Position numbers and translations under genes: made by a program
Notes under the pieces: generated by a model
The model's database searches: none
Told to the model about the DNA's origin: nothing
Seen by the model: the letters and a program-made list of their open reading frames with translations, nothing else
Origin: an uncultured Actinomycetes bacterium
Lineage (GTDB): Bacteria; Actinomycetota; Thermoleophilia; Solirubrobacterales; Solirubrobacteraceae
Reading direction: 5' to 3'
Assembly: GCA_963751065.1 (NCBI GenBank)
Contig: CAVVTD010000008.1
Location: forward strand, 4,764-68,763
DNA: 64,000 bases
In this document: positions 2 through 36,423 of the stretch, in pieces
Layout: every line of letters starts with the position of its first letter
How positions within the stretch are numbered: the first letter of the stretch is position 1

Positions 2-400
2 CCCCTCGCCAAGCAGTTGCTGGCCGAGATCGTCGCGGCCAATGCCCGCCACATGAACCTCTTCCGCGCACGGGCGATCGCGCACGGCGTCGACCCCGAC
101 GCCTACGTCGCGCCGCCCGAGGGCGAGGCGATCTACGAGCGCATCGAGATCATCTCCGACTTCGACGAGCTCGTCGCCTACGCCGCCGGCTCGCTGGACC
201 ACTTCGGCCAGCTGCTGGACACCTACGCCGCCGGTGCCACCGGCGAGGACGCGGCGACCGTCGCGACCGTCGCGGCCGACAACGACGCCGCGCGCGAGCG
301 CCTGGCCGCGCTCATGTCCGGGCCGCACTTCGCGGCCGTCGACGCGCACGAGCTCTACCGGCTGCGCGAGCTCGTCGAGACCGGAATGTATGTCGGCTGA
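2..400 (+). CDS. hypothetical helical protein, C-terminal part (5' end cut by window edge); possibly ferritin-like, unverified
   Basis: The frame is open from the first bases of the window to TGA at 398-400. The composition is protein-like (NARHMNLFRARAIAHGVDPDAY...ELYRLRELVETGMYVG), unlike off-frame Arg/Pro junk. The stop overlaps the ATG at 390 of the next gene. Confidence 0.5.
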   Translation, partial: PLAKQLLAEIVAANARHMNLFRARAIAHGVDPDAYVAPPEGEAIYERIEIISDFDELVAYAAGSLDHFGQLLDTYAAGATGEDAATVATVAADNDAARERLAALMSGPHFAAVDAHELYRLRELVETGMYVG

Positions 401-1271
401 GACCCTCGTCGCCGCCCGCCGGTTCGAGGCGCTGCGTACCGAGCTGCCGGCCGGCTCGCCGCGGGCGTGGCGCTACGGTGCGCTCGCGCTCGCCTCGCGG
501 GCGGCCGCCTGCGTGTCGGAGGGCACGCGGATCGGCCATCGCCACGGCTTTGATTCCGGACCCTTCATGGCCCACGTCTACGCCGACCGCGCGACGGGCC
601 GCACTCCGCTGGGCCGGCGGCTGGACCGCCGGCTGCTGGACCGCCCGACCTGCCAGGCCTTCCGCGACATCCGCGGCCTCGCCGAGGACGCCGTGAACGA
701 GGCGATCGAGGCCGCCGGCGAGCGCGCCGTCGTCGCCGACCTGGCGGCCGGCCCGAGCCCGTACCTGCTGCACGCGCTCACGCGCCATCCCGGCGCGAGC
801 GCGATCCTCTGCGACATCGACGAGGCCGCGCTGTCCCAGGCGTCCGCCGCCGCGCGCGAGCTCGGCGTCCAGGACCGCGTGAAGACCCGCAGGCTCAGCG
901 CATTCGACCGCGCCGCCGTCGAGGTCCTGCTCCCTCGGGTGGACGTCGTCTGCGAGCTGGGCCTGTACGGCATCTACCACGACGACGCGCTCATCGAGCG
1001 CCACTTCCTCGATCTCGCCGACTCCGCGGCGCCGGGCCAGATCGTCTGCAACGTGCAGGTCGAGAACCCGGAGATCGAGTACATCGCGCGGGTCTGGCGC
1101 AACGCCAAGGGCGAGCGCTGCGTATGGCGGCTGCGCCCGCTCGAGCAGATCGAGGGATACGCGCGGGCGGCCGGGTACGACACGGCGTCGGTGACCTCCG
1201 ACCGCAACGGCATCTATCGCGTCATCCGATTCGTCCGGCGCGACGCCGCGCGGGAGAGGGCCGCCGCATGA
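390..1271 (+). CDS. class I SAM-dependent methyltransferase
   Basis: ATG 390 overlaps the upstream stop. It has a Rossmann-type SAM-binding region (VVADLAAGPSPYLL, ILCDIDEAAL, VVCELGLYGIY). The stop overlaps the next ATG (ATGA at 1268-1271). Confidence 0.75.
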   Translation: MSAETLVAARRFEALRTELPAGSPRAWRYGALALASRAAACVSEGTRIGHRHGFDSGPFMAHVYADRATGRTPLGRRLDRRLLDRPTCQAFRDIRGLAEDAVNEAIEAAGERAVVADLAAGPSPYLLHALTRHPGASAILCDIDEAALSQASAAARELGVQDRVKTRRLSAFDRAAVEVLLPRVDVVCELGLYGIYHDDALIERHFLDLADSAAPGQIVCNVQVENPEIEYIARVWRNAKGERCVWRLRPLEQIEGYARAAGYDTASVTSDRNGIYRVIRFVRRDAARERAAA

Positions 1272-2630
1272 GCTCGTCCGTCCTCACCTGGGGCACCGAC
1301 CCCGGCAGCACGCCGCAGCTGGCCTCCGAGCGCCTCGTCGCGCTCGAGCGCTCGCACCACGCGATGTGGAACTACCTCACGTACCGCGACGCGATCGGCA
1401 TCGTCGGCATCGATCCCGCGCAGCTGTACCCGGGCGGGACGACGCGCCTGGATCCCGCGACGTGGGCCGACCTCGGCTGGCTGACGTGCTTCGCCGGCCC
1501 GCCGGCCAGCGCCGTCGCCGCCATGCGCGACGCGGTCACCGCCGAGCACCTCAACCAGTACAGCCCCGACCTCATCGAGCCGCTGCGCGAAGCGGCGGCC
1601 GGCGTGCTCGGCCGCGCCCGCGACGACGACTTCGAGGTCATCGGCACCGAGGGCGCACAGGCCGGCATCGCGTTGTCGCTCATGGCGGTCGCCGGCCCCG
1701 GCGACGAGGTCATCCTCTCGGACCCGGGCTACTTCCACGTGCCGTCGGCGGTCATCGCGACGGGCGCCGTACCCGTCACTGTCCCGATCGACGCCGCCAA
1801 CGGGTTTCGCCTCGACCCCGACGTCGTGGCCGCCGCGATCACCCCGCGCACGCGGGCGATCGTCATCGTCGATCCGCTCAACCCGTTCGGGACCGTGCAG
1901 ACCGAGGACGAGCTCGCCGCCCTGGCGCGGCTGGCCGACGAGCACGACCTCCTGCTCATCCACGACGTCACGCACGGGTCGCTCGTCATCGATCCCGACG
2001 TGCCGTTCCGCTCGCTGCCCGCGCTGGAGCTGACCGACAACGCCGTGGCCACGTTCTCGGTCTCGCACTGCTTCGGGATGGCCGGGCGCGCGGATCGGCT
2101 TCCTCGCCGGGCCTTCGCGCCTCATGCGCAGCTGCCTGCGCCTGAAGGCCGCGCTGACGCGGCTGAACACGAGCCTGCCCGCCCAGCACGGCGCGCTCGC
2201 GGCGCTGCGCGACGCCGACTACCTCGCCCACGCCCAGGGCATCGTGCGCCGCAACCTCACCCACCTGAAGGGCACGCTGGCCGGCATCGACGGCCTGCAG
2301 CTCACGACGTCTCCCGTCCGCGGGCTGGCCTGCGCGCTGGACACGTCCGGCGCGGGCGTCACCTCCCAGGAGCTCATGGTCGCCCTGTTCGCGCGCCGCG
2401 TCGCCACCTATCCCGGCGACGGCATGGGCACGACCGGCGCGGCGACGACGCTGCGGCTGAACCTCTCGCGCCCCGACCCATGGGCGATGGACCACCTGCG
2501 CGACACGCTGCCCGAGGCGATCGCCGAGGCGGCATCGGGGCGCTGGCGCGAGCCGGTCGCGGCGCTGCTGGACAGCAAGGGCACGCCGCGAGCGATCGAT
2601 CTCGCCGCGACGATCCGAGGCGGGCCGGTC
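1268..2630 (+). pseudogene. fold-type I (class I/II) aminotransferase-like segment, frame-broken near 2085-2092; continues in frame into the decarboxylase segment
   Basis: Aminotransferase blocks are present: GTEGAQAG, SDPGYF, IVDPLNPFG, LLIHDVTHG. FSVSHCFGMAG is in the frame of 1268 and RIGFLAGPSRLM is in the frame of 2124, a +1 shift between them. The residue at the Schiff-base Lys position of the SxSK block is His (cac). Confidence 0.7.
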
Positions 2631-3854
2631 ATGAGCGTCGCGGCGCTGCTCGCCGAGCACGGCTCGCCGCTGTGGCTCGCCGACGTCGATCGGGCGCGCG
2701 ACCGGCTGGCCGGCCTGCGCGCGGCGTGGACGGCCGTGTGGGCCGACACCGAGATCGCCTACTCCTACAAGACGAACCGCACGCCGGCGTTCCTGCGCGC
2801 CTTCGCCGAGGAGGGCGCCGGCGCCGAGGTCGTGTGCGCCGCCGAGTACGCGCTGGCGCGCAACGTCGTCGGCATCGCGGGCCCGCGGATCACGGTCAAC
2901 GGACCGGCCAAGCCCGACGCGCTGCTGGCGCGGGCGGCCGCCGACGGGGCTTTGGTGATCGCCGACAGCGCGGCGGAGCTCGAGCGCCTGGCGCTGGCGG
3001 GCGTCGCGCGCGCGGGGCTGCGCGTCGGCCTGCCCGGGCCCGAGGGCACGCCGAGCCGCTTCGGCATCCCGCCGGCGCAGGTCGTCGCCGCAGGCCGGCG
3101 CGCCCGCGATCTCGGCCTGACGCTCGAGGTGCTGCACGTCCATCTCGTCTCGACCGACTTCAGGGCGCAGCTCGGCGCGCCCGGCACCGGCACGCTCGCG
3201 GCGAACGTCCGGGTCGGCTGGGCCAAGGCCCCGGCCGTCCACGCGCACGCCGCGTCGCTGCTGGCTGGCCTGGCCGCCGAGCTCGGCGGCGTCGATGCGA
3301 TCGACATCGGCGGCGGCATCCCCGCCGCGCCCTCGCCGGCGGCGGACCGCCACGCGGCGGTGGTGGCCGATGCGCTGCACGCCGCCGGCTTCACCGGCCG
3401 TCTCATGCTCGAGCCGGGCCGCGCGCTCGTCGCCGACGCCGTCGACCTCGCGATGACCGTCGTCGCGGTCAAGACGCTCGCCGACGGCAGCCCCTGCGCC
3501 GTGCTCGACGCGGGCACGAACCTGCTGCCCGGCACCCTGTGGGCGTGGCCGCGGCTAGAGGCCTTGCAGCCGCGGGCGGGCGGGACGGCATCCGCGCCCA
3601 CACTCATTGCCGGCCCGCTGTGCCTGAACATCGACGTCGTCGCACCGGCCGCCGCGCTCGGCGAGCTCGCCGTCGGCGACGTGCTCATGGCCCGCGACGT
3701 CGGCGCCTACCAGCAGGTCCAGTCGACCGAGTTCGGCGACCTACGGCCGGCCGTCGTCGCACGCGACGGCGGCACCTGGCGTCTGCATCGCAGGCGCGAA
3801 GAGCTTTCAGACCTGATCCATTTCGACCGAGAGGAAGCACCATGGAGCGCGTAG
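2631..3854 (+). CDS. Orn/DAP/Arg decarboxylase family (fold-type III PLP) segment
   Basis: Motifs seen: YSYKTN (PLP Lys), VVCAAEYALA, DIGGGIP, LEPGRALVA, GPLCLNID, VGAYQ. No stop separates it from the aminotransferase-like segment in this frame (ORF 2124..3854). It may therefore be the C-terminal half of one fusion protein of about 860 aa. ATG 2631 is only the first internal Met. Confidence 0.75.
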   Translation: MSVAALLAEHGSPLWLADVDRARDRLAGLRAAWTAVWADTEIAYSYKTNRTPAFLRAFAEEGAGAEVVCAAEYALARNVVGIAGPRITVNGPAKPDALLARAAADGALVIADSAAELERLALAGVARAGLRVGLPGPEGTPSRFGIPPAQVVAAGRRARDLGLTLEVLHVHLVSTDFRAQLGAPGTGTLAANVRVGWAKAPAVHAHAASLLAGLAAELGGVDAIDIGGGIPAAPSPAADRHAAVVADALHAAGFTGRLMLEPGRALVADAVDLAMTVVAVKTLADGSPCAVLDAGTNLLPGTLWAWPRLEALQPRAGGTASAPTLIAGPLCLNIDVVAPAAALGELAVGDVLMARDVGAYQQVQSTEFGDLRPAVVARDGGTWRLHRRREELSDLIHFDREEAPWSA

Positions 3855-5194
3855 TCGTCATCGGCGGAGGCGGCGCGGGGACGGCGGCCGCGACCATCAC
3901 GAAGCGCCTGAACCCCGATCTCAAGGTGAGCGTCTTCACCGAGTTCTCCGACATCGCCTACTCGCCGTGCGGCATCCCGTTCGTCCACGGTCGCGAGATC
4001 CCGAGCTTCGACGACCTGTTCCTGTCGACCGTCGAGCGCTACCGCGAGGACGGCCTGGACATGCGCATGGAGACGGTCGTCACCGACATCGACCTCGACC
4101 GGCGCACGATCACGACGAAGAACCAGCCCGAGGGCTTCGACCAGCTCATCCTGTGCACCGGCTTCTTCTGGGAGCAGCCCGACGTTCCCGGCGTGAACCT
4201 CGACGGCATCCACTACGTCAAGGACATCCGCAAGTCGATGGAGTTCGACAAGCAACTGGACTCGATGAAGCGGATCGTCGTCGTCGGCGCCGGACCGGTC
4301 GGCGTCGAGATGGCCGGCGGCCTCGCCCACCGCGGGCTGCAGGTCGACCTCGTCGACGAGGGGCCGTGGGTGCTGCACGAGATCCTCGACCCCGACGTCG
4401 CCAAGCCCGTCCACGACTCGCTCGAAGCGCGCGGCGTGACGCTGCACCTCGGCACGAAGACCGAGTCCTTCGAGGGCAACGCCGACGGCCATGTCAACGC
4501 GGTCGTGACCAGCGACGGCACGCTCGAGTGCGACGCGGTCGTGACCGGCCTGCACAAGGTCCCAAACACGAAGCTCGCCGAGGCCGCGGGGCTGAAGCTC
4601 GGCACGACCGGCGCGGTCAGCGTCGACGACCACATGCGCACGTCGGCCCCCGGCGTCTGGGCGGCAGGCGACGTCGTCGAGATCCCGCACGGCCTGAACA
4701 TGATCCCGATCGTCGGGCTCACCGGCGCGCACGCGTACGCGCAAGGCCGCGTCGCCGCGGTGAACATCACCGGCGGCGACCTCGCCTACGACCCGGTCTG
4801 GGTGCCGTGGGGGATGGTCGCCGGCGACTACACGATCGGCGGCTTCTCGATGGGCGAGAACCTCGCCAAGTCGATCGGCATCCCCTACGTGCTGGCCAAG
4901 GGCGTCGGCATCACGAAGGCCCGCTACTACCCGGGCGCCCAGAAGACGTTCGTCAAGCTGCTCGCCGAGCCGGACACGCTGCGCCTCATCGGCGGCGTCA
5001 TCCACGGCGGCGAGGGCGTCAAGGAGCGCTGCGACTTCCTCGCGTTCGCGGCGAAGCGCGGCGCCACGCTCTACGACCTCGCGTACATGGAGAACATCTA
5101 CTCGCCGCCGATCGGCGCCCTGTTCGAGCCGATCCAGATCGCCGCGCAGAACGCGCTGGCCGAGCAGCGCCAGAACAAGCTGGCGGTCGCATGA
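3842..5194 (+). CDS. FAD-dependent pyridine nucleotide-disulfide oxidoreductase, CoA-disulfide reductase/NADH oxidase family
   Basis: Motifs seen: VVVIGGGGAGTAAA (FAD GxGxxG), AYSPCGIPF (redox Cys block of the Nox/CoADR family), VVVGAGPVGVEMAG (NAD(P) fold), WAAGDV. The ATG overlaps the upstream gene by 13 nt. Confidence 0.85.
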   Translation: MERVVVIGGGGAGTAAATITKRLNPDLKVSVFTEFSDIAYSPCGIPFVHGREIPSFDDLFLSTVERYREDGLDMRMETVVTDIDLDRRTITTKNQPEGFDQLILCTGFFWEQPDVPGVNLDGIHYVKDIRKSMEFDKQLDSMKRIVVVGAGPVGVEMAGGLAHRGLQVDLVDEGPWVLHEILDPDVAKPVHDSLEARGVTLHLGTKTESFEGNADGHVNAVVTSDGTLECDAVVTGLHKVPNTKLAEAAGLKLGTTGAVSVDDHMRTSAPGVWAAGDVVEIPHGLNMIPIVGLTGAHAYAQGRVAAVNITGGDLAYDPVWVPWGMVAGDYTIGGFSMGENLAKSIGIPYVLAKGVGITKARYYPGAQKTFVKLLAEPDTLRLIGGVIHGGEGVKERCDFLAFAAKRGATLYDLAYMENIYSPPIGALFEPIQIAAQNALAEQRQNKLAVA

Positions 5195-5541
5195 TGAGCG
5201 GGCTGACCAACGCCAAGCGCAACCTGCGCAAGCGCTCGGAGGAGCACCTGCGCCTCGCGGTGCTCAGCGAGATCGGGCGCGATCAGCCGTCGACGGTCGA
5301 GCCGTACAAGGAGAAGGGCGGGCGGCTGTGGGGCTCGCTGTTCGTCCCCGTGTACCGGCGCGTGCCGTGGAAGGCGAAGGAGAAGGCGATGGGCGCGCTC
5401 GGCATGACCGCGTCGGGCTGGAAGGCGCCGTCGCGCAAGCCCGGCGAGCCGTGGCGCCCGCCGGCCGACATGGCCGACCGGGTGCAGGCCATGGCGAAGG
5501 CGCCCGCGCGCGAGTCCGCCCGGGTCGATTCCGACTCCTAG
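5191..5541 (+). CDS. hypothetical small basic protein
   Basis: ATGA overlap with the oxidoreductase stop (5191-5194). The 116-aa Lys/Arg-rich sequence (MMSGLTNAKRNLRKRSEEHL...) has no motif I recognise. Confidence 0.45.
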   Translation: MMSGLTNAKRNLRKRSEEHLRLAVLSEIGRDQPSTVEPYKEKGGRLWGSLFVPVYRRVPWKAKEKAMGALGMTASGWKAPSRKPGEPWRPPADMADRVQAMAKAPARESARVDSDS

Positions 5542-20530: not shown

Positions 20531-23034
20531 CGCCGCCGCCGGACCTCGATACGCGCCTGCGCGCGCGGCCCGCGGCGACCGATCGCCGACAGGCCGCGCA
20601 CGGTGACCGATGCGCGCGTGCCGGGGGCGACGTCGGGCACGGTGAGCCGGCGCGTCGTGCGCTTGGGCAGGAACAGCAGGCGGCGGCCGTCCGACAGCAC
20701 GACGCGCACCTCGTAGGCGGCGGCCCCCCGGGTCCGCCCCCAGCGCACGCTGACCACGCCGCGGCGTTCGGTGATCCGCAGGGAGCTCGGGCGCCGCGGC
20801 CGGCGCGGCGGCGGCGCCGTGTAGCGCGCGACGACGCCCGCGCTCTGCGTCAGCCCGTCCTGACGGACGATGGCGACGATCTCGCGCCGTCCCGCCCGGC
20901 CGTCGGGCACGGTGAAGGCGAGGCGGCCGCGGCGATCCGTCGTCGCCGTGAGCCGGCGGCGGGTGTCACGGCCCTGCTCGTAGAACACGACCGAGCGCCC
21001 GCGCACGCGGGTGAAGCTCCAGCGCAGCGCCCGTCGACGACCCTCGCCGAGGACCCGTGCCCGCACCCGCGGCGCGGGCAGCGACTGCGCCGAGCGAAAG
21101 ACGCTCGCGGGCGCCGAGCCCGGCCTGAGCGACATGCGGTACAGCCCGCCCGCCGGGTCCTTGACCGCGATGTAGGTCGTGCGGTCCTCGAGGTTCTGAA
21201 ACAGCAGGACCTTGCCGTCGTCGATGCCGCCGAGCGGATCGTCCGGCGTAACGGCGACCGTCGCGCCGTCCGGGCCCGTGAGGATCGCCCGCGGCGGCGC
21301 CAGCGTGCCGACGACGCTGAAGACGGCCACCGGCTGGCCCCCCAGGATGGCGAAGCTGCCGAACGTCGGGGCCCCGGCCTGGCGCAGCGAGTTGCCGACC
21401 ACCCAGTCGCCGATGTTGCATGAACTCGCGAAGATGTTCTTGACGCCGTTGTTCCAGCCGTAGCCGAAGCCGACGTCCGGGCCGAAGCCGTGGCGGCACG
21501 CCGCGACGCCGGAGGAGGAGATCACCGCGTCGCCGCCACTGCGAAATCTTCCGGCGCCGACCGACCCGTTGCCCTGGAAGTTGAACGCGGTGGCGCCGTC
21601 GACCCAGCCCTGCAGATCGCCCCGGAATCCGACGCCGAACTTCTCGAACGTCGCCTGCGCGGTCATGTCGAAGTGCCCGTCGGTCCGGTAGGACACCGCG
21701 CCGGACGCCAGCGGGATGTCGACGAGCCGCGCGCTGCCGGTGATCGCGTAGCGGTCCGGGCTGCCCTCCTCGTACGTGAAGTCCCCGTCGACCGAGACCG
21801 CCTCGGTACCGAAGATGCGCGGCCCGGCGCTGACGCCGATGCCGCCGCTGAGCCGGACCGGGTTGATCGTGATGTCGAAGCGGATGCGCTGCAGGAACAC
21901 GCCGAAGGCCAGCTGGCGGTTGAAGTTGGCGACCTCGCCGCCGGCGTGGAAGTACCCGTCGCCCACGCCGAAGCCGAAGCGCGCGGTGACGGTCGGTGAC
22001 AGCGGCGAGGGCAGCACGAGCGTGCCCTGGCCCTCGAAGTGCGCGATGCCCCCGGCGTCGGAGTAGGCCAGCGCGAGGTCGCGCAGCTCGAAGCGCCCGA
22101 GCCGCGCGGAGCCGGCGGTCACCGTGATGTCGTCGACCGCGACGCCGTTCGCGGACGCGCGGACGACGGTCGCCCCGCTGACGCCGCCGAGCACGCCGGG
22201 CAGCTGGAGGTTCAGGCCGACGAGCACCGAGCGCTTGCCGGCGTCGACGTCGAGGGTCGCGCTGCCGGTCACCGGCAGGCCGCGCAGCTTCACGCCGCGC
22301 TCGACGGCGAACGCGAACTGCCGCCCGATGTGCCAGTCGATCGCCCGGCGGTAGAGCACCAGGTTGTCGACGGAGATCTGGGTCCTGCCCTTCGTGCTGA
22401 TCTCCAGTGCGCCCGGCTCGATGCGCACCTCGGCGCCGGCGCCGGTGGTCCGCACGTCGATCCCCGCCACGCGCACCTGACCGCTGGCGACGTAGGCCTT
22501 GCCGTCGCGGCGAAAGCACGTGGCCGTCGCGGTCAGCGGGCCGACGCGGACCGTCGTCCCCTTACAGCCCGTGCCCGGACCCGGGGTCGGCGCCGGTGCC
22601 GGCGCGGGGCTGCCCGGGACGCTGCCCAGCGGCGGCGGCGCGGTCCCGGTGGACGGCGGCGGAGCGGGGTTCGGCGGCGGCGCCGCCCCGCAGCGCGGAG
22701 CGCCGCTGATGAAGCCGTCGGTGTAGGTCTTGAGGAACTGGTCGGGCACGAAGTAGCCCCCGACCTTGTCCCAGATCCGCGAGCCGTAGGCGAGCTCGCC
22801 GGAGACCTGGCACTGGATCGTCACCCACTGGCCCTTCTTCAGCCAGTCGATCTTCGCGCGCGGCTCGCTGCGCGGTTGCGTGCGCCCGTCCACGTCGGCC
22901 TCCACCAGGTACTCGTTGCCGGCCGCCCACGGTTTCGCGCTGGTCACGCGCGCGGCGTGGGCGAGCGACGGGACGCTCAGCAGCAGCAGCGCCATCACCG
23001 CCAGCCCGGGGATCGCGATGCGGGCGCGGAGCAC
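20527..23034 (-). CDS. large secreted protein: signal peptide, SH3b-like N-domain, Pro-rich linker, beta-rich core, Fn3-like Arg-rich C-terminus
   Basis: Signal peptide MLRARIAIPGLAVMALLLLSVPSLAHA. SH3b-like segment WLKKGQWVTIQCQVSGELAYGSRIWDKV. Pro-rich linker PPPNPAPPPSTGTAPPP. C-terminus RITERRGVVSVRWGRTRGAAAYEVRV... Confidence 0.7.
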   Translation of the reverse strand: MLRARIAIPGLAVMALLLLSVPSLAHAARVTSAKPWAAGNEYLVEADVDGRTQPRSEPRAKIDWLKKGQWVTIQCQVSGELAYGSRIWDKVGGYFVPDQFLKTYTDGFISGAPRCGAAPPPNPAPPPSTGTAPPPLGSVPGSPAPAPAPTPGPGTGCKGTTVRVGPLTATATCFRRDGKAYVASGQVRVAGIDVRTTGAGAEVRIEPGALEISTKGRTQISVDNLVLYRRAIDWHIGRQFAFAVERGVKLRGLPVTGSATLDVDAGKRSVLVGLNLQLPGVLGGVSGATVVRASANGVAVDDITVTAGSARLGRFELRDLALAYSDAGGIAHFEGQGTLVLPSPLSPTVTARFGFGVGDGYFHAGGEVANFNRQLAFGVFLQRIRFDITINPVRLSGGIGVSAGPRIFGTEAVSVDGDFTYEEGSPDRYAITGSARLVDIPLASGAVSYRTDGHFDMTAQATFEKFGVGFRGDLQGWVDGATAFNFQGNGSVGAGRFRSGGDAVISSSGVAACRHGFGPDVGFGYGWNNGVKNIFASSCNIGDWVVGNSLRQAGAPTFGSFAILGGQPVAVFSVVGTLAPPRAILTGPDGATVAVTPDDPLGGIDDGKVLLFQNLEDRTTYIAVKDPAGGLYRMSLRPGSAPASVFRSAQSLPAPRVRARVLGEGRRRALRWSFTRVRGRSVVFYEQGRDTRRRLTATTDRRGRLAFTVPDGRAGRREIVAIVRQDGLTQSAGVVARYTAPPPRRPRRPSSLRITERRGVVSVRWGRTRGAAAYEVRVVLSDGRRLLFLPKRTTRRLTVPDVAPGTRASVTVRGLSAIGRRGPRAQARIEVRRRR

Positions 23035-23144
23035 GCGCGCACGCTATCTGACCCGGGCAGATCTGCGCTGAAAAGGGAGCCCCGGCTCGGCGCTGTCGAG
23101 CGGTGGGGACCGCATTCGCCCGCCGGTCCTGGGAGGATGGGACG

Positions 23145-25596
<2,452 letters not shown>

Positions 25597-25604
<8 letters not shown>

Positions 25605-26787
25605 GTCGTAGGTCCTGGTCGATCGCCTCGGGGGCGAGGACGCGGTCGATCGCCATGATCGCCGCGCCCATCACGCCGGCGCGGTCGCCGAGCTGACACG
25701 GGACGATCCGCAGGTCGCGGGTGGCGAGCGCCAGCGAACGGCTGAAGATGCCCTCGCGCACGCCGGCGATGAGCTGCGCCTGCGCCTCGGCGATGTCGCC
25801 GCCGATGACGATGACCGCCGGGTTGAAGAAGTTCACCGTCCCCGCGAGCACCTCGCCGAGCGAGCGCCCGGCGTCGCGCACCATGCGCATCGCCGTCGCG
25901 TCGCCCGCCCGGACCAACCGCACGACGTCGCGGCTGTTGGCGGTGTCGGCGCCCTCCGCGGCCAGGCGCTGGGCGAGCGCGTGACCACCGGCCACGGCCT
26001 CCAGGCAGCCGACGTTGCCGCACGAGCAGACGACGTCCTCGGCCGTCACGCGGATATGGCCGATGTCGCCGGCGGCGCCGCGCGCGCCGTGGTGGATCTG
26101 GCCCGCGGCCACGATGCCGCAGCCGATCCCGGTGCCGACCTTGACGAGCAGCAGGTGCTCGGTGTCGCGCCAGTGGATCCAGTGCTCGCCGCGGGCCATG
26201 ATGTTCACGTCGTTGTCGACGAGGACCGGTCGTCCCTCGTAGAGGCCGGCGAACCAGCCGGGGATCGAGTAGCCGTCCCAGCCCGGCATGATCGGCGGGT
26301 TGACGGGCCGCCCGCTGGCGAACTCCACGGGCCCCGGGACGCCGATGCCGATGCCGCGCACCTCGGCAGCGGTGTGCCCGGTCTGCTCCAGCAGGTCGCT
26401 GAAGCACTCCGACGTCCAGCCGAGCACCTCCTCCGGCCCGAGCGCGATGTCCTTGTCGGCGGCGGTCTCGGCCAGCGGCGTGCCCGCGAGGTCTGACACC
26501 GCGATCCGCGCATGGGTCGCGCCGAGGTCGGCCACGAGCACGATGCCGGCCGACGCGTTGAAGGCCAGGACGGTGGGCGGCCGGCCGCCGGTCGACGTGC
26601 TGCCGCCGGCCTCGTGGAGGAGTCCCGCCGCGAGCAGCGCGTCGACGCGCTGGGCGACCGTCGAGCGCGCGAGCCCGAAGTGCCGCGCCAGGTCGGCGCG
26701 GGTCACCGCCGTGCCGTCGCGGATCGCCGCCAGCAGCGCGCCCGCGCTCGTCGGGGAGGACGGGCCGGGGGGCGGCGTCGTGGCCAT
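25597..26787 (-). CDS. ROK family transcriptional regulator
   Basis: N-terminal wHTH (TRADLARHFGLARSTVAQRVDALL) plus a ROK sugar-kinase-like domain with the zinc motif CSCGNVGCLE. Confidence 0.85.
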
Positions 26788-26855
26788 AGCCGGGCAACGT
26801 ACAGCATGAGAAGGCAGATGTAACGGACTTTCGCATCATTCATGGCGACTTATGC

Positions 26856-26885
26856 TTGACAATCGGACTAAGGACGGATTAGGTT
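26856..26885 (+). promoter_or_regulatory. candidate promoter (-35 TTGACA, 18-nt spacer, -10 TAGGTT) for a leaderless or near-leaderless operon mRNA
   Basis: TTGACA lies at 26856-26861 and TAGGTT (TANNNT) at 26880-26885, 7 nt before the GTG start at 26893. This is the most AT-rich stretch of the intergenic region. No Shine-Dalgarno sequence is visible. Confidence 0.35.
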
Positions 26886-26892
26886 CCGAACC

Positions 26893-28059
26893 GTGGCCTC
26901 CACGCTCCGAGCCGGGATCGCCGGCACCGGCTTCATCGGTGCCGTCCACGCCCGGTCCGCCCGCCGCGCCGGCGCCCGCGTGACCGCGGTCGCGGCCTCG
27001 TCGCTGGAGAGCGCGCAGCGGGCCGCGCGGGACCTCGGCGCCGAGCGCGCCTTCGCCTCCGCCGAGGCGCTCGTGCAGGACCCGGACATCGACGTCGTCC
27101 ACATCTGCACGCCGAACCATCTGCACCAGCCGCTCGCCGAGCTCGCGCTCGCCGCCGGCAAGCACGTCGTGTGCGAGAAGCCGCTGGCGCTCGACGCGGC
27201 CGGCGCGCGGCGCCTCGTCGATGCCGCGGCGCAGAGCGGCCTGCAGACCGCGGTCCCGTTCGTCTATCGCTACTACCCGACGGTGCGCGAGGCGCGCCGG
27301 CGCGTTCACGACGGCGAGACCGGCGAGCTGCGCCTGCTGCACGGCGCCTACCTGCAGGACTGGCTCCTGCGCCCCGACGACGACAACTGGCGCGTCGACG
27401 CCGCGCTGGGCGGACGCTCGCGGGCCTTCGCCGACATCGGGTCGCACTGGTGCGACCTGGCGCAGTTCATCTCCGGTCACCGCATCACCCGCCTGTCGGC
27501 GCGGCTGATGACCGCCGTGCCCGAGCGCCTGAGCGCCGACGGGCGCCGCGCGTTCGCCGCCGCCGACGCAAGCGGCAGCGGCGATCCCAAGGCGGTGACG
27601 ACCGAGGACGCCGCCGTCGTGCTCTTCGAGACCGACGCGGGCGCGCTCGGCACGGTCACCGTCAGCCAGATCTCCGCGGGCCGCAAGAACAAGCTCTGCA
27701 TCGAGCTCGACGGCGCGCAGGAGGCGCTGTCCTTCGACCAGGAGAACCCCGAGGAGCTGTGGTGCGGCCGGCGCGAGGCGGCGACGATCGTCCGCCGCGA
27801 TCCCGAGCACCTGTCGCCGGACGCCGCGCGCTTCGCATCGCTGCCGCCCGGCCATCCGCAGGGCTACGCGGACTGCTTCGACGCGTTCGTCGCCGACGTC
27901 TACGCCGCGATCGCGACCGACACGCCGTCCGACGGGCTGCCCGGCTTCGAGGATGGCCTGCGCGCCGCGCAGGTCACCGACGCAGTGCTCGCCTCGGCCG
28001 CGACCGAGACGTGGGTCGACGTCGCCGGCGCCGCCCGGTCGCAGGCGGTGGCCCGGTGA
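26893..28059 (+). CDS. Gfo/Idh/MocA family oxidoreductase
   Basis: Blocks seen: AGIAGTGFIGAVHA (Rossmann), VVHICTPNHLH, VVCEKPLA. Confidence 0.85.
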   Translation: MASTLRAGIAGTGFIGAVHARSARRAGARVTAVAASSLESAQRAARDLGAERAFASAEALVQDPDIDVVHICTPNHLHQPLAELALAAGKHVVCEKPLALDAAGARRLVDAAAQSGLQTAVPFVYRYYPTVREARRRVHDGETGELRLLHGAYLQDWLLRPDDDNWRVDAALGGRSRAFADIGSHWCDLAQFISGHRITRLSARLMTAVPERLSADGRRAFAAADASGSGDPKAVTTEDAAVVLFETDAGALGTVTVSQISAGRKNKLCIELDGAQEALSFDQENPEELWCGRREAATIVRRDPEHLSPDAARFASLPPGHPQGYADCFDAFVADVYAAIATDTPSDGLPGFEDGLRAAQVTDAVLASAATETWVDVAGAARSQAVAR

Positions 28060-28979
28060 AGCTCGGCTTCCTCACCTCCTGCATGCCCGAGCGCAGCCTC
28101 GAGGACATCGCCGCCTGGGCCGGCGCCAACGGCTACGAGGCGCTCGAGCTCGCGGCCTGGCCGCACCTCGGCGACCGCCCGTTCACGGCCAGCCACGTCA
28201 AGGCCGACGTCTTCGACGACGCCGAGGCCGAGCGCGTGCGCAGCGCGCTCGATGACCACGGCCTGGCGCTCTCGGCGCTCGCCTACTACGACAACAACCT
28301 CGACCCCGACCGCGCCGAGCGCGAGGCCAACCACGCGCACCTGCGCACGTGCATCGACGCGTCCGCCGCCCTCGGCGCCGTCCCGGTCGGCACGTTCATC
28401 GGCCGCGATCCCGGCCGCAGCGTGGCCGAGAACCTGCGCGAGGCCGAGCACGTCTTCCCGCCGCTCGTCGACTACGCCGGCGAGCGCGGCGTGAAGCTCA
28501 TGATCGAGAACTGCGTCATGGAGGGCTGGCATCCCGACGGCCATCCCGGCAACCTCGCCTACTCGCCCGAGCTGTGGGAGTGGATGTTCGACCTCGGGCT
28601 GTACCTCAACTACGACCCGTCGCACCTGCTGTGGCTCGGCATCGACCCGGTCGCGGCGCTCAAGCCGTATGTCGACCGCGTCGCGCACGCGCACGCCAAG
28701 GACGCCGAGGTCTTCGAGGCCGAGCGCAACCGCTACGGCTTCTTCGGCCGCATGTCGACGCGCGAATCAGATCCGTGGGACATGGGCTGGTGGCGCTACC
28801 GCATCCCCGGCCTCGGCGACGTCGACTTCCGCCGCTACGTCGACACGCTCTACGAGGGCGGCTTCGACGGCGTGCTGTCGGTCGAGCACGAGGACCCGGT
28901 GTGGGGCGGCACCCCGGAGCTCGTCGAGGCCGGGCTGACGATCGCCCGCAACCACCTACGCGGCCTGGTCGTCCGATGA
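28056..28979 (+). CDS. sugar phosphate isomerase/epimerase (xylose isomerase-like TIM barrel)
   Basis: GTGA overlap with the upstream stop. Blocks seen: GYEALELA, MIENC, DPSHLLW, HAKD, LSVEHED. Confidence 0.85.
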   Translation: MKLGFLTSCMPERSLEDIAAWAGANGYEALELAAWPHLGDRPFTASHVKADVFDDAEAERVRSALDDHGLALSALAYYDNNLDPDRAEREANHAHLRTCIDASAALGAVPVGTFIGRDPGRSVAENLREAEHVFPPLVDYAGERGVKLMIENCVMEGWHPDGHPGNLAYSPELWEWMFDLGLYLNYDPSHLLWLGIDPVAALKPYVDRVAHAHAKDAEVFEAERNRYGFFGRMSTRESDPWDMGWWRYRIPGLGDVDFRRYVDTLYEGGFDGVLSVEHEDPVWGGTPELVEAGLTIARNHLRGLVVR

Positions 28980-30496
28980 AGCCCGTCCTCGAGGTCCGCA
29001 ACCTCGTCAAGGAGTATCCGGGCGTCAAGGCCCTGCAGGGCGTCGACCTCGACGTGCTGGAGGCCGAGGTGCACTGCCTGCTCGGGCCCAACGGCGCGGG
29101 CAAGTCGACGCTCATCAAGTGTGTCTCGGGCGCCGTCGAGCCGACGAGCGGCGAGATCCTCTTCGACGGGGAGCCGCTGCCGGCCGGCGACCCGGCGGGC
29201 TCGCTGAAGCGCGGCGTCGCCACGATCTACCAGGAGCTCGACCTCGTCGAGGACCTCAGCGTCGCCGCGAGCATCTTCCTCGCGCACGAGCCGCGCCGCC
29301 GCGGCGGCCTGCTGCTCGACCTCGACAAGATGCACCGCGACTCGGCCGCGCTGCTCAAGCGGCTCGGCCACGAGTCGATCCCCCCGCGCGCGAAGGTCGG
29401 CGCGCTGCGGCCGGCCGCGCAGCAGATCGTCTCGATCGCGCGCGCCCTGTCGGGCAACGTGCGGCTGCTCATCATGGACGAGCCGTCGGCGATCCTCGAC
29501 GAGGGCGAGATCGAGACGCTGTTCGAGGTCGTGCGCCGGCTCACCGCCGAGGGCGTCGGCGTCGTCTACATCTCCCATCGCCTCGACGAGATCCGCCGCA
29601 TCGGCGATCGCGTGACCGTGCTCGCCGACGGCCGCACCACGGCGACCGGGCTGCCCGCGAGCACCCCGACCGACGAGCTCGTCGAGCTCATGGTCGGCCA
29701 CAAGGTCGAGCAGCTCTACCCCGACCGCCCGGTGGGAACGGACAAGCTGCTGCTCGAGATCCGCGGCGCGCGGCGCCTGCCGGCGGTGCGCGACGTGAGC
29801 CTGAAGGTCCACGCGGGCGAGGTCGTGGGGCTCGGCGGGCTCGTCGGCTCCGGGCGCACCGAGCTGCTGCGCCTCGTCTACGGGCTCGACCAGCCCGAGG
29901 CGGGCGAGTTCCTGCTCGACGGCAAGCCGTTGAAGGCCAACAGCCCGGGCGCCGCGATCCGCCGCGGCATGGGATTGGCGCCCGAGGATCGCAAGTCCCA
30001 GGCGCTCGTCCTGGACTGGAGCCAGACGAAGAACGTCACGCTCTCGGACCTCGACCGCTTCTCGCATCCGCTGCTGAACATCCGCATCGAGCGCGCGCAG
30101 GCCCGTGCCGAGCTGCGCAAGCTCGGCACCGTCCCCGACGATCCCGATCGCCCGGTTCGCCTGCTTTCGGGCGGCAACCAGCAGAAGGTCGTCCTCGCGC
30201 GCTGGCTGTTGCACGGCTGCCGGATCCTGCTGCTCGACGAGCCCACACGCGGTGTCGACGTCGCGACGAAGGCCGAGATCTACCGGATCATCAGCGACCT
30301 GGCCAAGGACGGCCTCGGCGTACTCGTCGTCTCGTCCGAACTCGAGGAGCTCGTCGGCATCTGCACGCGCATCCTCGTGATGCGCGAGGGCGAGATCGTC
30401 GCCGAGGTCGACGGCAGGACCGCCACGGAGCGCGAGCTCCTGCGCCACGCCGTGGCGCCGACAGACGCACCCGTTCTCGCCGAGGAGGTCACATGA
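28976..30496 (+). CDS. sugar ABC transporter ATP-binding protein (duplicated ABC domains)
   Basis: ATGA overlap with the upstream stop. Walker A GPNGAGKST, a second Walker A GLVGSGRTE, the signature LSGGNQQK, and LLLDEPTRGVD. Confidence 0.9.
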   Translation: MKPVLEVRNLVKEYPGVKALQGVDLDVLEAEVHCLLGPNGAGKSTLIKCVSGAVEPTSGEILFDGEPLPAGDPAGSLKRGVATIYQELDLVEDLSVAASIFLAHEPRRRGGLLLDLDKMHRDSAALLKRLGHESIPPRAKVGALRPAAQQIVSIARALSGNVRLLIMDEPSAILDEGEIETLFEVVRRLTAEGVGVVYISHRLDEIRRIGDRVTVLADGRTTATGLPASTPTDELVELMVGHKVEQLYPDRPVGTDKLLLEIRGARRLPAVRDVSLKVHAGEVVGLGGLVGSGRTELLRLVYGLDQPEAGEFLLDGKPLKANSPGAAIRRGMGLAPEDRKSQALVLDWSQTKNVTLSDLDRFSHPLLNIRIERAQARAELRKLGTVPDDPDRPVRLLSGGNQQKVVLARWLLHGCRILLLDEPTRGVDVATKAEIYRIISDLAKDGLGVLVVSSELEELVGICTRILVMREGEIVAEVDGRTATERELLRHAVAPTDAPVLAEEVT

Positions 30497-31515
30497 GCAC
30501 GCCCGATGCGCCCGCCGGACCGAGCGGAGCGGCCGCGCTCATGGGCCAGATGAAGACGCTCAAGCTGCAGGAGTACGCGCTCGGGCTCGTCGTCATCGCG
30601 CTGTTCGTCGCCGGCGCGATCCTCAAGCCGGACACGTTCCCGACCTGGGACAACATCCGCAACATGCTCACGCAGGCCAGCGTGATCGGCGTGCTCGCCA
30701 TCGGCATGACGTTCGTCATCGCCACCTCGGGGATCGACCTCTCGGTCGGCTCGATGGTGGCGGCGGCCGGCGTCTTCGGCGGCATCATGGTCGGCGATGG
30801 CGGGACGAGCAGCATCGTCTTCATCGTCGCGGCGATCGGCTTCGCCACCGCGCTGGGCTCGATCAACGCGATCGCGGTGGCGTACGGGCGGGTGGTGCCG
30901 TTCATCGCGACGCTCGCGATGTTCTCGATCGCCAGGGGCGTGGCGCTGCTGCTCAACGACAAGCTCCCCGTCAGCCTGCTCGACCTCAACGGCGGCTCGT
31001 TCGGCGACCCGGCCGCCTTCTCGCTGCTGTGGTTCGGCAACGGGCGGATCCTCGAGATCCCCGTGTCGGTCTACATCTTCCTCGCGGTCACCGTCGCCGG
31101 CTGGATCCTGCTCAACCGCACCCGCTACGGCCGCTACGTCGTGGCGGTGGGCGGCAACCGCGAGGCGGCGCGGATCGCCGGGGTGCCGGTCCGGAAGGTC
31201 ATCTTCAGCGTGTACGTCCTGGCCGGGCTGCTCGCCGGCATCGCGACGGTGCTGCTCTGCGCCCGCCTGGGCAGCGCCTCGCCGGTCAGCGGCAACCTCT
31301 ACGAGCTCGACGCCATCGGCGCGGTCGTCATCGGCGGGACGAGCCTGGCCGGCGGCCGGGCGACGATCGTCGGCACGTTCCTCGGCGTCCTGACGTTCGC
31401 GCTCATCTTCAGCCTCATGACGCAGCTCAACCTCTCGACCGAGGTCCAGCAGGTGACGAAGGGCCTGATCGTCCTCGGTGCCGTCCTGCTGCAGCGCCCG
31501 GAGGCCAGGTACTGA
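30493..31515 (+). CDS. sugar ABC transporter permease (RbsC/BPD type)
   Basis: ATGA overlap with the upstream stop. Polytopic membrane protein with TFVIATSGIDLSVGS and GGTSLAGGRATIVGT blocks. Confidence 0.9.
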   Translation: MSTPDAPAGPSGAAALMGQMKTLKLQEYALGLVVIALFVAGAILKPDTFPTWDNIRNMLTQASVIGVLAIGMTFVIATSGIDLSVGSMVAAAGVFGGIMVGDGGTSSIVFIVAAIGFATALGSINAIAVAYGRVVPFIATLAMFSIARGVALLLNDKLPVSLLDLNGGSFGDPAAFSLLWFGNGRILEIPVSVYIFLAVTVAGWILLNRTRYGRYVVAVGGNREAARIAGVPVRKVIFSVYVLAGLLAGIATVLLCARLGSASPVSGNLYELDAIGAVVIGGTSLAGGRATIVGTFLGVLTFALIFSLMTQLNLSTEVQQVTKGLIVLGAVLLQRPEARY

Positions 31516-31568
31516 TGGCCCGCGCCGCAGCCCCTTCCCGACGTCCAGTCCACAACAGGAGGAACGCA

Positions 31569-32612
31569 ATGTCGCTCAGGCGACCCCTCATCTCCATCGC
31601 CGCAGTCTCGCTGCTGGCGCTCGGTGCCGCCGCGTGCGGCGGCGAGACGAAGACGGTCACGGTCGGCGCATCGGAGCCGAGCGGCACCGCGGCGGCCGGC
31701 ACCGACGCGCCGGCGGGCAAGACGGTGAGCATCATCGCCAGCGTGCCGCCGACCGATCACGGATGGCTCGGCGCCATCTCCAAGAACGCCAAGGCCGCGG
31801 CGGACTCGCACGACGACGTGAAGTTCGAGCTGCTGCAGGCGGCCGACGCCGACTCGCAGGCCCAGCAGGTCGAGCAGGCGATCGCCAAGAAGCCCGACGT
31901 CCTCGTCGTGCTGCCCCAGGACGGCGCGGCGCTGACCCCGGTCGCCCAGAAGGCCGAGCGGGCCGGCATTCCCGTGGTGAACATCGATCGCCTGTTCTCC
32001 AAGCCCGACGCGGCGACCGCGACGGTGCTCGGCGACAACTACCAGATCGGCGTGCTGGCGGCCGGCTACATCTCCGAGCAGCTGAAGTGCAAGGGCAACG
32101 TCGTCGAGATCCAGGGCCTCGCCGGGATCTCGGTCACGACCGACCGCAGCAAGGGCTTCTCCGACGAGCTCAAGAAGCGCTGCCCGGGCGGCGGCGTGAA
32201 GATCGTCGCCAAGCAGCCGGGCGACTTCAACCCCGACACCGGCCTGAAAGTCATGGAGAACATCCTGCAGGCGCAGAAGAAGATCGACGCCGTCTACACG
32301 CACGACGACGACATGGCGCAGGGCGTCATCCAGGCGATCCGCAACGCCAATCGCGACGACGAGATGTTCCTCACCGGCGTGGGCGGCTCGCAGGACGCGA
32401 TGAAGCAGATCAAGGCCGGCGGCCTGTACCGCGCGACCTTCCTCTACAACCCGAACATGGCCGCGACCGCGGTGAACATGGCCCGGCTGATCGCCCTCGG
32501 CCAGGGCTTCGCCGAGCTCGTGCCGCCGGAGGTGCCGCGCCAGGTGGTCGTCCCGGCCGCCGTGGTCACGAAGGCGAACGTCGGGCAGTACGAGAAGTAC
32601 GCGTTCAACTAG
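31569..32612 (+). CDS. sugar ABC transporter substrate-binding lipoprotein (periplasmic binding protein type I)
   Basis: AGGAGG lies 6-7 nt upstream of the ATG. Lipobox LLALGAAAC. PBP blocks VVNIDR and DAVYTHDDDMAQG. Confidence 0.9.
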   Translation: MSLRRPLISIAAVSLLALGAAACGGETKTVTVGASEPSGTAAAGTDAPAGKTVSIIASVPPTDHGWLGAISKNAKAAADSHDDVKFELLQAADADSQAQQVEQAIAKKPDVLVVLPQDGAALTPVAQKAERAGIPVVNIDRLFSKPDAATATVLGDNYQIGVLAAGYISEQLKCKGNVVEIQGLAGISVTTDRSKGFSDELKKRCPGGGVKIVAKQPGDFNPDTGLKVMENILQAQKKIDAVYTHDDDMAQGVIQAIRNANRDDEMFLTGVGGSQDAMKQIKAGGLYRATFLYNPNMAATAVNMARLIALGQGFAELVPPEVPRQVVVPAAVVTKANVGQYEKYAFN

Positions 32613-32644
32613 GACTCGCCGGCCGACGCCCGCGCTGGGCTGGC

Positions 32645-32678
32645 CGCCCGCTGGATGCTCTACCGCATCCGGCGGGCG
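32645..32678. terminator. strong GC hairpin between convergent genes (candidate bidirectional terminator)
   Basis: CGCCCGCTGGATGC-TCTACC-GCATCCGGCGGGCG gives a 14-bp stem with one mismatch. It sits in the 81-nt gap between the stops at 32612 (+) and 32694 (-). There is no U-tract. Confidence 0.45.
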
Positions 32679-32693
32679 CGCGGGCGTGGCGGC

Positions 32694-35600: not shown

Positions 35601-36416
35601 CAGCAGATGCGCCAGCAGGATCGCATTCATCGGCGCGCGCTCGATGTCGCCCGCCAGCGTGGCGAGGTCGGGCGTGCTCAGCGGCCGCGGCGGCGTGCGC
35701 AACCGCCACAGCAGGGCCTCGGTCGCCGATCCGGACGGCGCGTCGCTGTGCCATCCGTCGCGCATCCGAACGAGGTGCACGGACGCATCGGCGAACGCGG
35801 GGCCGCTCGGACCGTGGGAGACGAAGACGACGGTCTGCCAGCCGTCGCAGAGCCACAGCGGCTGCTCGAGCAGCGGCGAGAGATCCGCGGGGAGCTTTGC
35901 GCGCGGCCCGCGCAGCACGACGCCCCGCTTCGCGGCGACCGTGCCGACGATCCACTCGCCGCTCGGGTCGGCCGTCACGCTCAGCTCCAGCTCGGCGCCG
36001 TCGCGGATCACCGCCACGTCGTCGAACGTGGGCGCCCCGCCGTCGTCGCCGAGCTTGCGGATCATGAGCACCAGGCCGCTCTGCGCCCCGCTCGCGGTGA
36101 GCGTCGCGCTCGCGTGCTCGGCAGCCTCCGCGTGGCGGCGATCGGTGCTGCGCGCGCCACGCACGGGCGCGGCGCACGACATCGAGAGGTCGATAGCGTC
36201 GCGCACGTACTCGTCGCCGGCCTCGAGCGCGACGAGCTGTCGCTCGACGCTGTCGCCCGCCCGGTACTCGAGCTGGTACACGCCGGGGTCGAGCTCGGCG
36301 TCGAGCCCGCCAAGCCCCGAGACGACGGTCGACCGCGAGCGGTCGGCGACGCTGAGCTCCGTCCACGGCGAGTTGGCGCGAAGCGTGATGCGGGTGGTTG
36401 CCGCGGGAGAGAGCAC
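32694..36416 (-). CDS. 1240-aa multidomain membrane protein: unassigned N-domain(s), Pro-rich linker, ~4 TM helices, Gluconate_2-dh3-like segment, C-terminal GMC family FAD oxidoreductase
   Basis: GTG 36416 is preceded by AGGGA. Hydrophobic segments lie at about aa 499-615. The dinucleotide fold is VDAVVVGSGAAGALIAYRLAERG. The GMC C-terminal block is VVDPDLRVHGCRNLYACDASVFPT. Confidence 0.8.
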   Translation of the reverse strand: MLSPAATTRITLRANSPWTELSVADRSRSTVVSGLGGLDAELDPGVYQLEYRAGDSVERQLVALEAGDEYVRDAIDLSMSCAAPVRGARSTDRRHAEAAEHASATLTASGAQSGLVLMIRKLGDDGGAPTFDDVAVIRDGAELELSVTADPSGEWIVGTVAAKRGVVLRGPRAKLPADLSPLLEQPLWLCDGWQTVVFVSHGPSGPAFADASVHLVRMRDGWHSDAPSGSATEALLWRLRTPPRPLSTPDLATLAGDIERAPMNAILLAHLLLREGEPIDGLVAGLQSVLPGHPDVRALTWIATRKAKAMSWPPMLRAAFERVQRLDTEQHGVLRDGSAAVALACGQFREGLWTAYHPAGNIVASPSNEALSAVAEQLQDPSTQRVLAHLDRVSEAGAGSDQRDVLADADTSQVAYLTSLPTAAVARALTDIEATLTAQDPAQPGSPGEPAPVPSAAPDGASTESEHTPSAGEDGRAWQSLHAARALEAVPDEQRLSRLLRVLSVVFALAFVPLIAPTTIDGGMLIPTLEGMLEPTAVAIITRSILLGALFALAASDVRRFGALVELLTWVLVVEAAAVAALIVSGEAGTSPSEDILAFALLWFAIDAAIVVAVGRLSRRAYRTRFGLQLLTPGQHRTLQALSETVHGADSLVPPARVAHNVDAYLHGVHLHDSSKLSLRRARLALDLVALLPILHARPSFSLIAVEDRRRLLHGSWRGMGRLRPSVERTAHQLCSLGYFANPEVAEQIAGPAVAPSGIVPMLTHPSITQRRPDDHGRHTVDAVVVGSGAAGALIAYRLAERGLRTIILERGTEIDPARDTSDALQTLPDLLGDGSLDVLGDLDARAHRISTLGGDCPVRYPTWSSVAPMVVKQWVDEFGLDEQRFHESWQQVLTWLPGIDRPAGPFSRAAVLLQEGIQQLGYTPTGTLTRPDEAPPDLSVRSVAALDTLLPWGQRRFGDHLEVMPGCEVQRILMEDGEPRGVACRMRDGRELTIHAKTVVLAAGALGCAHLLRRSAISRGRSFSFNLASTLTADFDEQLDAHVGVQLMTDLCPDQPKFVVESTWSPVWLQSMAMPGTFDRHEENMRRYRHMAAMRVHLGTDRSGRSPYWSRRATQFHLTGPELARLTERLEVVGRILFAVGARRVMPATPVYQEFASVAQLQALAPSLTSSRGLAISARPQGGAPMSRDPHDGVVDPDLRVHGCRNLYACDASVFPTSVIRRPHLTAMAMAEYCAMGME

Positions 36417-36423
36417 AGCGTCC

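Follow-up and report, generated by a model that had tools for sequence, protein, structure and literature searches.

A 64,000-nt window of high-GC DNA (GC content, 72.6%) from an uncultured member of the Solirubrobacteraceae, G000:C8:4764-68763, contains a region (positions 1268-3854 of the forward strand, on which the parts described at 2-5541 all lie) in which an aminotransferase-like domain appears to run on into a decarboxylase domain. Both domains belong to folds that use pyridoxal 5'-phosphate (PLP), and the first has His in place of the Lys that forms the Schiff base with the cofactor. Our analysis indicates that the region is likely to comprise not a single fusion gene but two genes, coupled in translation, that belong to a conserved cassette, with the first (gene 1) encoding a putative vitamin B6 enzyme of a His type. 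The His can be taken, with near certainty, as a conserved family trait and not a sequence error, and the +1 frame break within gene 1 and the apparent fusion to the decarboxylase are very probably artefacts of the assembled sequence. These conclusions draw on a DNA alignment of the window with nine genomes of the same genus (the congeners) and on a wider set of 80 related loci from Solirubrobacterales, Thermodesulfobacteriota, Dadabacteria, and Spirochaetia, in which the Solirubrobacterales loci come from species-representative genomes; the related genomes behind the fetched loci are mostly Microflora Danica (MFD) metagenome bins.

The 5' part of gene 1 (1268..2086, frame 2; residues 1 to 273) opens at the ATG at 1268 and carries the equivalents of Tyr70, the stacking Tyr, Asn194, and Asp222 of aspartate aminotransferase (AspAT), followed by the block FSVSHCFGMAG / ARIGFLAG, in which the codon CAC (2066..2068) places His at the Schiff-base position. 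This substitution, which the original prediction had read from the letters of the window, is borne out by the match to the Pfam family Aminotran_1_2 (PF00155), by the alignment of a 67%-identical homologue, P0002, to Thermus thermophilus AspAT (1bkg), and by the related loci. In the P0002 alignment, His stands opposite the PLP Lys (msHcwgmaGaRlGf versus aaKafamtGwRiGy); the Asp, the Asn, the phosphate-binding Arg, and the carboxylate-binding Arg are kept, and the equivalent of Tyr225 is also His. Homologues share the change: the codon is CAC or CAT in all nine congeners, and His occupies the position in 79 of the 80 related loci, the remaining locus having failed the search pattern. The surrounding motif is SVSHC[FYW]GMAGARIGF in Solirubrobacterales and SVSHGYGMAGVRIGF in other groups, and His-type loci are found in at least three phyla (NCBI ranks). 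The internal-aldimine Lys expected of PF00155 aminotransferases is therefore replaced by His in the window and throughout these sets. CAC had been described as two or three positions away from AAG or AAA; the distance is two for both codons and never three. The possibility that the His marks a decaying position was ruled out by its presence in 79 of 80 loci together with a ratio of nonsynonymous to synonymous substitution rates (dN/dS) of ~0.2; among the congeners the ratio for the His-type gene is 0.18 to 0.26.

The remainder of the active site is equally well preserved. Across 33 sequences that are 49 to 90% identical, Y98, Y155, N205, D233, T235, H236, S264, S266, H267, R275, and R396 are invariant (numbering of the orthologue from congener G018), as is a single Cys, C74. 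The cofactor and carboxylate ligands of AspAT are thus all kept, with Asp at the pyridine nitrogen, Asn and Tyr at O3', Arg and Ser at the phosphate, and Arg at the substrate carboxylate, except for Lys258 and Tyr225, both of which are His (H267 and H236, respectively).

Family and fold assignments place the protein among class I aminotransferases. The Aminotran_1_2 match covers residues 78 to 273 (model positions 18 to 225; 88.4 bits) in the frame opening at 1268 and resumes from 2091 in the next frame (model positions 227 to 359; 22.2 bits); since the model is covered without loss across both frames, the +1 break lies inside an otherwise continuous domain. The intact homologue P0002 matches the whole PF00155 domain with 130.8 bits against a cut-off of 19.7. 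A match to PF01041 (DegT/DnrJ/EryC1) is limited to residues 124 to 237 (61 bits), and PF00155 fits better. An AlphaFold2 (AF2) model of the G018 orthologue (mean predicted local distance difference test [pLDDT] score, 88.5) has the AspAT fold, and its best Foldseek matches are class Ib aspartate, prephenate, and kynurenine aminotransferases (template modeling [TM] scores of 0.83 to 0.86; E, ~1e-26), not DegT-type sugar enzymes. Identity to class Ib enzymes such as T. thermophilus 1bkg and 1bjw is ~24%, and shared with them are the Asp, Asn, Arg, and Ser that bind the cofactor, the aromatic residue that stacks on it, and the Arg for the carboxylate of the substrate; in the window family, however, the Schiff-base Lys and the Tyr225 equivalent are both His, and there is a strongly conserved N-terminal extension of ~75 amino acids (aa) with the motif HHAMWNYxTYRDAI, as well as a C-terminal helical extension. 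No NCBIfam model matches the His-type protein above its own cut-off. The best-scoring models, GntC (163 bits; cut-off, 415) and VioD (104 bits; cut-off, 391), describe PLP cyclodehydratases that share the class I fold and act in amino acid-tailoring pathways, but scores so far under the cut-offs do not support equivalence; GntC/VioD-type enzymes retain the Lys. The His-type group is a genuine and, so far as can be judged, undescribed cross-phylum family.

Lys is kept in more distant relatives (P0005, P0020, P0008, P0010, P0023, and P0028; ~40% identity). In P0005, the sole Lys-type relative whose locus was fetched, the gene context differs from the His-type cassette. This Lys-type sister group has Asn at the equivalent of Asp222, which normally pairs with the pyridine nitrogen (NNxTH versus HDVTH). 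Two divergent His-type proteins, P0022 and P0035, carry both changes, His and Asn, and three of the Lys-type proteins (P0008, P0010, and P0023) have an extra C-terminal domain of ~300 aa that lacks a family match. A quick tree hinted that the Lys-type relatives might be revertants inside the His group; the approximately unbiased (AU) test does not reject a single His clade (P = 0.55), and we do not claim reversion. The tree and the AU test are compatible with a single origin of the His type.

The +1 break had been placed at ~2088, with an artefact considered as its possible cause. The break stands, but the site does not: the cause is one extra C at 2082..2083 (ATGGCCGGGCG versus ATGG-CGGGCG), which in the DNA alignment is unique to the G000 assembly and is carried by none of the nine congeners. 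Downstream of it, the 3' part of gene 1 (2088..2634) is read in frame 0 to ~2625, contains the equivalents of Arg266 and Arg386, and ends at the native TGA at 2632-2634 (frame 1) within an ATGA overlap. The product would be about 455 aa long, compared with about 453 to 456 aa in the nine congeners. Programmed frameshifting or slippage at GGCCGGGCG was considered and ruled out, since the extra base occurs in no relative.

This insertion is one of several. We scanned the window for frame breaks against open reading frames (ORFs) of three congeners with high GC content at third codon positions, using the reverse scan as a control; the further breaks that it brought up in the window lie in the metallophosphoesterase, argS, and redoxin genes. 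Column-by-column comparison identified seven 1-nt insertions unique to G000, all in conserved genes, in ~17 kb (C8:3297-20383; window positions -1466 to 15620): two in an MSMEG_0565-type glycosyltransferase gene (C8:3297 and C8:3835), one in the aminotransferase homologue, one in a metallophosphoesterase gene (10653), two in argS (13220 and 13277), and one in a redoxin/TlpA-like gene (15620). All seven are +1 and are clustered near the contig end, with none in the rest of the syntenic window, and the reverse scan of the relatives yielded only one candidate break, a possible one in G018. The two insertions in the upstream glycosyltransferase gene split it into three frames, and the single argS of the genome fails to match its model before position 69. 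Since a living cell could hardly tolerate a broken sole argS, the insertions are best read as consensus errors and not mutations, and the stretch C8:3297-20383 gives the impression of a consensus of locally poor quality close to the end of a contig.

If the frameshift were instead real, the aminotransferase homologue would be a recently inactivated pseudogene in this organism. The deposited sequence does contain the extra base, and loss of the decarboxylase in some lineages (see below) indicates a cassette capable of decay; on the other hand, the same type of insertion hits the sole argS twice, and gene 1 has no lesion besides the single base and retains ~90% protein identity to intact orthologues. 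We regard inactivation as exceedingly unlikely. One point does weigh against assembly error, the cause to which the comparison with relatives leads: the inserted bases lie partly outside homopolymers, which is not the classic signature of long-read error.

A double-PLP-fold fusion of ~860 aa had been proposed for the two domains; it does not survive comparison with homologues. Each of the nine congeners encodes the aminotransferase homologue and the decarboxylase in two genes, the TGA of the first overlapping the GTG or ATG start codon of the second in a 4-nt GTGA or ATGA. In ~60 Solirubrobacterales loci the two genes lie in different frames or apart, an in-frame fusion occurring in none, and in Thermodesulfobacteriota, Dadabacteria, and Spirochaetia they are ~1 kb apart, with a CysK-like gene in the gap. 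The one such gap that was examined (L093:9368-10312) encodes a cysteine synthase/SbnA-like fold-type II PLP enzyme, so that the L093 cassette holds three PLP folds. A search of 5.8 billion protein sequences with the joined 861-aa query returned no genuine two-domain protein; the only long database matches, P0003, P0007, P0013, and P0015 from other bins, were considered as real fusions and rejected as frame-broken chimeras with Arg/Pro/Ala-rich out-of-frame stretches.

In the window, the ATGA stop-start overlap is intact at 2631-2634, within the junction GCGGGCCGGTCATGA (2620..2634), and the in-frame run into the decarboxylase exists only because, at 2620-2630, the sequence is a net 4 nt longer than in most congeners. 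Versions of 2620-2634 one base shorter (GGGCCGTCATGA or GGGCGGTCATGA) would give a gene 1 product ending in ...IRGGPS* or ...IRGGRS*, close to the ...IRGGR* and ...RARPPS* with which congener proteins finish. Of the four extra bases, one, at ~2625, is thus most probably an assembly error that joins the genes in frame, an outcome (two genes in homologues, with the stop missing only through sequence error) that the original prediction had itself named as incompatible with a fusion. Its observation that no stop separates the domains is correct, frame 0 being stop-free from 2037 to 3854, but has little value as evidence for a fusion: the wrong frame, frame 2, is likewise open from 1124 to 5194, for 1356 codons, and in DNA of this GC content a missing stop is weak evidence. 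This spurious frame starts in the end of the methyltransferase gene, passes out of frame through the decarboxylase gene, and continues in frame into the flavoprotein gene. Gene callers could report it, and similar chimeras from related bins are public (P0003, P0006, P0007, P0013, and P0015).

It is conceivable that only the break at 2082 is an error and that the 4 nt are real, in which case this strain would make a bifunctional protein of 861 aa. The open frame 0 would agree with this, as would the variable length of the junction among congeners (+6 nt in G018); moreover, +4 is atypical for a single-base error, and under our interpretation at least 3 nt of it would have to be genuine, a further point against that interpretation. 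Yet both the start codon of the decarboxylase and the ATGA overlap persist, removal of one base restores a congener-like C terminus, seven unique +1 insertions lie in the surrounding 17 kb, and neither the ~60 related loci nor the protein database holds a fusion. A genuine fusion in this strain is therefore highly improbable, and we continue with two coupled genes.

The second of these (2631..3854) has its own start codon, the ATG of ATGA, and encodes a fold-type III PLP decarboxylase of 407 aa that is LysA/FslC-like. It matches PF02784 and PF00278, and, as had been noted for its PLP Lys, GGG, EPGR, and CxxxD blocks, its catalytic motifs are retained (YSYK, HVH, GGG, EPGR, CxxxD, and GAY, at 2760-3713); alignment to the lysine/ornithine decarboxylase 2plj in the PDB agrees. 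By hidden Markov model match and by its PLP Lys, His, GGG, EPGR, CxxxD, and Tyr, the protein belongs to the fold-type III ornithine/diaminopimelate/arginine decarboxylases. It scores below both the LysA and the FslC equivalog cut-offs (TIGR01048, 126 bits). The gene is missing from about 10 Solirubrobacterales loci (L051, L052, L055, L060, L061, L062, L066, L067, L069, and L072), in which the flavoprotein gene directly follows the His-type aminotransferase gene, and is degraded in L063. In some lineages, then, the cassette can do without the decarboxylase.

What the gene 1 protein does can be approached from its sequence and neighbors. We infer an active B6 enzyme, since the cofactor pocket is intact, both His residues are invariant, and the carboxylate Arg is kept. 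The protein would hold pyridoxamine 5'-phosphate (PMP) or PLP non-covalently, with the His as a general acid/base on an alpha-keto- or amino-acid-type intermediate, as in ColD, E1, and SpnQ, and would act in a pathway with the heme-oxygenase-like protein, methyltransferase, decarboxylase, and flavoprotein encoded beside it. ColD, E1 (AscC/DdhC), and SpnQ are PMP-dependent nucleotide-sugar 3-dehydratases of the aspartate aminotransferase superfamily in which the catalytic Lys is replaced by a His acid/base and PMP is untethered (PMC8987622). The likeness lies in a fold-type I protein with His for the catalytic Lys. The differences are several: those enzymes belong to the DegT/DnrJ/EryC1 subfamily and use nucleotide-sugar substrates, whereas the window protein is of the Aminotran_1_2/class Ib AspAT type, which speaks against a close parallel; its alpha-carboxylate Arg suggests that the substrates are amino or keto acids, not nucleoside diphosphate sugars; its gene context is different; and one invariant Cys leaves no room for the [2Fe-2S] site of E1 and SpnQ. 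An E1-like Fe-S enzyme was ruled out by that lone Cys in the 33 sequences. Because the tests of subfamily, context, and Fe-S cysteines failed, we limit the comparison to function: by analogy, we lean slightly toward an active His-type enzyme with a noncovalent cofactor that may work like ColD, E1, and SpnQ but is not a member of their group. Other considerations temper this. In the work of Ziak et al. in 1993, replacement of Lys258 by His in AspAT reportedly left only trace activity, so that a His here is not enough to make a good transaminase, and cofactor binding and activity of the gene 1 protein are predictions from its sequence.

The original prediction had also suggested that the Lys-less half might be a pseudoenzyme or a regulatory or substrate-channeling domain of the fusion. 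With the fusion very probably an artefact, about 10 loci lacking the decarboxylase, and the other cofactor residues invariant, that proposal is not supported in the form in which it was framed. A related possibility is that gene 1, as a separate gene, encodes a noncatalytic pseudoenzyme, i.e., a subunit that binds cofactor or substrate, regulates, or serves as a scaffold and that gave up transaminase chemistry along with its Lys. After all, canonical fold-type I enzymes all rely for proton transfer on the Lys that is replaced here, and another PLP enzyme is encoded by a gene tightly coupled to this one. There is also precedent in the hetero-oligomeric aminotransferase Ser4/Ser5 of Serratia sp. 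ATCC 39006, in which Ser4, encoded in a biosynthetic cluster, has no catalytic Lys and is inactive alone but is needed in the hetero-oligomer (PMC11726168). Ser4 resembles the window protein in being an aminotransferase-fold protein without the catalytic Lys, but Ser4 is a truncated protein whose partner is a complete aminotransferase paralogue. The window protein, by contrast, has its full length and the remainder of its active site, and the cassette offers it no active aminotransferase paralogue as a partner. Moreover, the His and the other cofactor and carboxylate residues are invariant across phyla, at positions where dead domains usually decay, and the ~10 loci without a decarboxylase keep the His-type gene. 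A pseudoenzyme thus appears rather unlikely, and an active enzyme is the reading that we prefer on the strength of these conservation patterns. The only precedents for class I aminotransferases with a Lys-to-His change that we found in the literature were ColD/E1/SpnQ and Ser4.

The cassette comprises, in order, the genes for a heme-oxygenase-like protein, Methyltransf_20, the His-type aminotransferase homologue, the LysA/FslC-like decarboxylase, a coenzyme A (CoA)-disulfide-reductase-like flavoprotein, and a small protein, and every adjacent pair shares bases (an ATGA, 11 nt, or 13 nt). The first gene, termed unk181, encodes a conserved protein of 178 aa; its 3' part occupies 2..400 of the window, and it starts upstream, at G000:C8:4627 (C8:4627-5163). 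It has no Pfam or NCBIfam match and adjoins Methyltransf_20 in nearly all related loci. Its AF2 model (pLDDT, 94.9) has a heme-oxygenase-like (TenA/CADD-like) all-helical fold, with TenA and CADD as best Foldseek matches (TM, 0.6 to 0.73; E of ~1e-3, marginally significant). H26, H63, H113, E169, and E172 are invariant and D35 is nearly so, a ligand count that fits a possible heme-oxygenase-like di-iron oxidase. A gene for an S-adenosylmethionine (SAM) methyltransferase-like protein (390..1271; PF12147, 130.5 bits) overlaps unk181 by 11 nt, and its TGA overlaps the ATG of gene 1 (ATGA). After the decarboxylase gene, and overlapping it by 13 nt, comes that of the CoA-disulfide-reductase/NADH-oxidase-like flavoprotein (3842..5194; PF07992, 183 bits; TIGR03385, 280.8 bits against a cut-off of 578.8), which has a single Cys motif, YSPCGIP. 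A conserved protein of 116 aa without a family match (5191..5541) follows, again with an ATGA overlap.

Upstream of the cassette lie an OsmC gene and the MSMEG_0565-family glycosyltransferase gene mentioned above, the latter matching TIGR04047 in three frame pieces that sum to ~362 bits. The gpr cluster (MSMEG_0565-0572) confers peroxide resistance in Mycobacterium smegmatis (PMC6039565). The window locus may be compared with Nit1C/gpr clusters: its glycosyltransferase is of the MSMEG_0565 family, OsmC and CoA-disulfide-reductase-like flavoprotein genes are present, and on one Thermodesulfobacteriota chromosome the cassette is adjoined by an MSMEG_0568-family radical SAM gene and by FdrA- and DUF2877-like genes. 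It differs in that the cassette lacks a nitrilase, a GNAT, and an AIR-synthase-like gene; conversely, the Nit1C genes are not known to include a heme-oxygenase-like protein, methyltransferase, His-type aminotransferase homologue, or decarboxylase. The MSMEG_0568-family radical SAM gene stands next to the cassette only in non-actinobacterial loci and is located elsewhere in the genome in G000, where two such genes score above the curated cut-off (G000:C15:1-6950 and G000:C4:91361-92386), one of them near a second MSMEG_0565-like glycosyltransferase gene at a contig end. A canonical gpr/Nit1C-type cluster probably lies elsewhere in this genome. Farther downstream in the window, ~18.5 kb (20537-39033) with a hydrolase/caspase-like module is missing from the syntenic regions of G018, G001, and G014, as for an insertion or island.

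It may further be that the His-type class I-fold proteins constitute a new mechanistic class of B6 enzymes acting on amino or keto acids, a proposal that we put forward tentatively and with more doubt than confidence. Such enzymes would do without a Schiff-base Lys, would carry out proton transfers by His267 (with His236), and would perform chemistry other than transamination, e.g., PMP-dependent dehydration/deamination or a redox step served by the flavoprotein. Their partners in making a small metabolite would be the methyltransferase, the decarboxylase, and the heme-oxygenase-like oxidase, which may be di-iron, and the pathway would be connected with Nit1C/gpr-type stress clusters.

For sequence annotation, the locus illustrates how single-base assembly errors in DNA of >70% GC create long and convincing "fusion" ORFs, and public protein sets already contain several such chimeras, derived from related metagenome bins. 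For B6 enzymology, the Schiff-base Lys is, to our knowledge, near-universal in fold-type I PLP enzymes, with ColD, E1, and SpnQ as the known catalytic exceptions; those exceptions taught new B6 chemistry. If our reading is true, a second, unrelated lineage with an invariant His, having a class I fold and an alpha-carboxylate Arg and found in at least three phyla within one conserved cassette, would provide a test case for Lys-independent B6 catalysis, and the cassette would offer a handle on an amino acid-tailoring module attached to Nit1C/gpr-like clusters.

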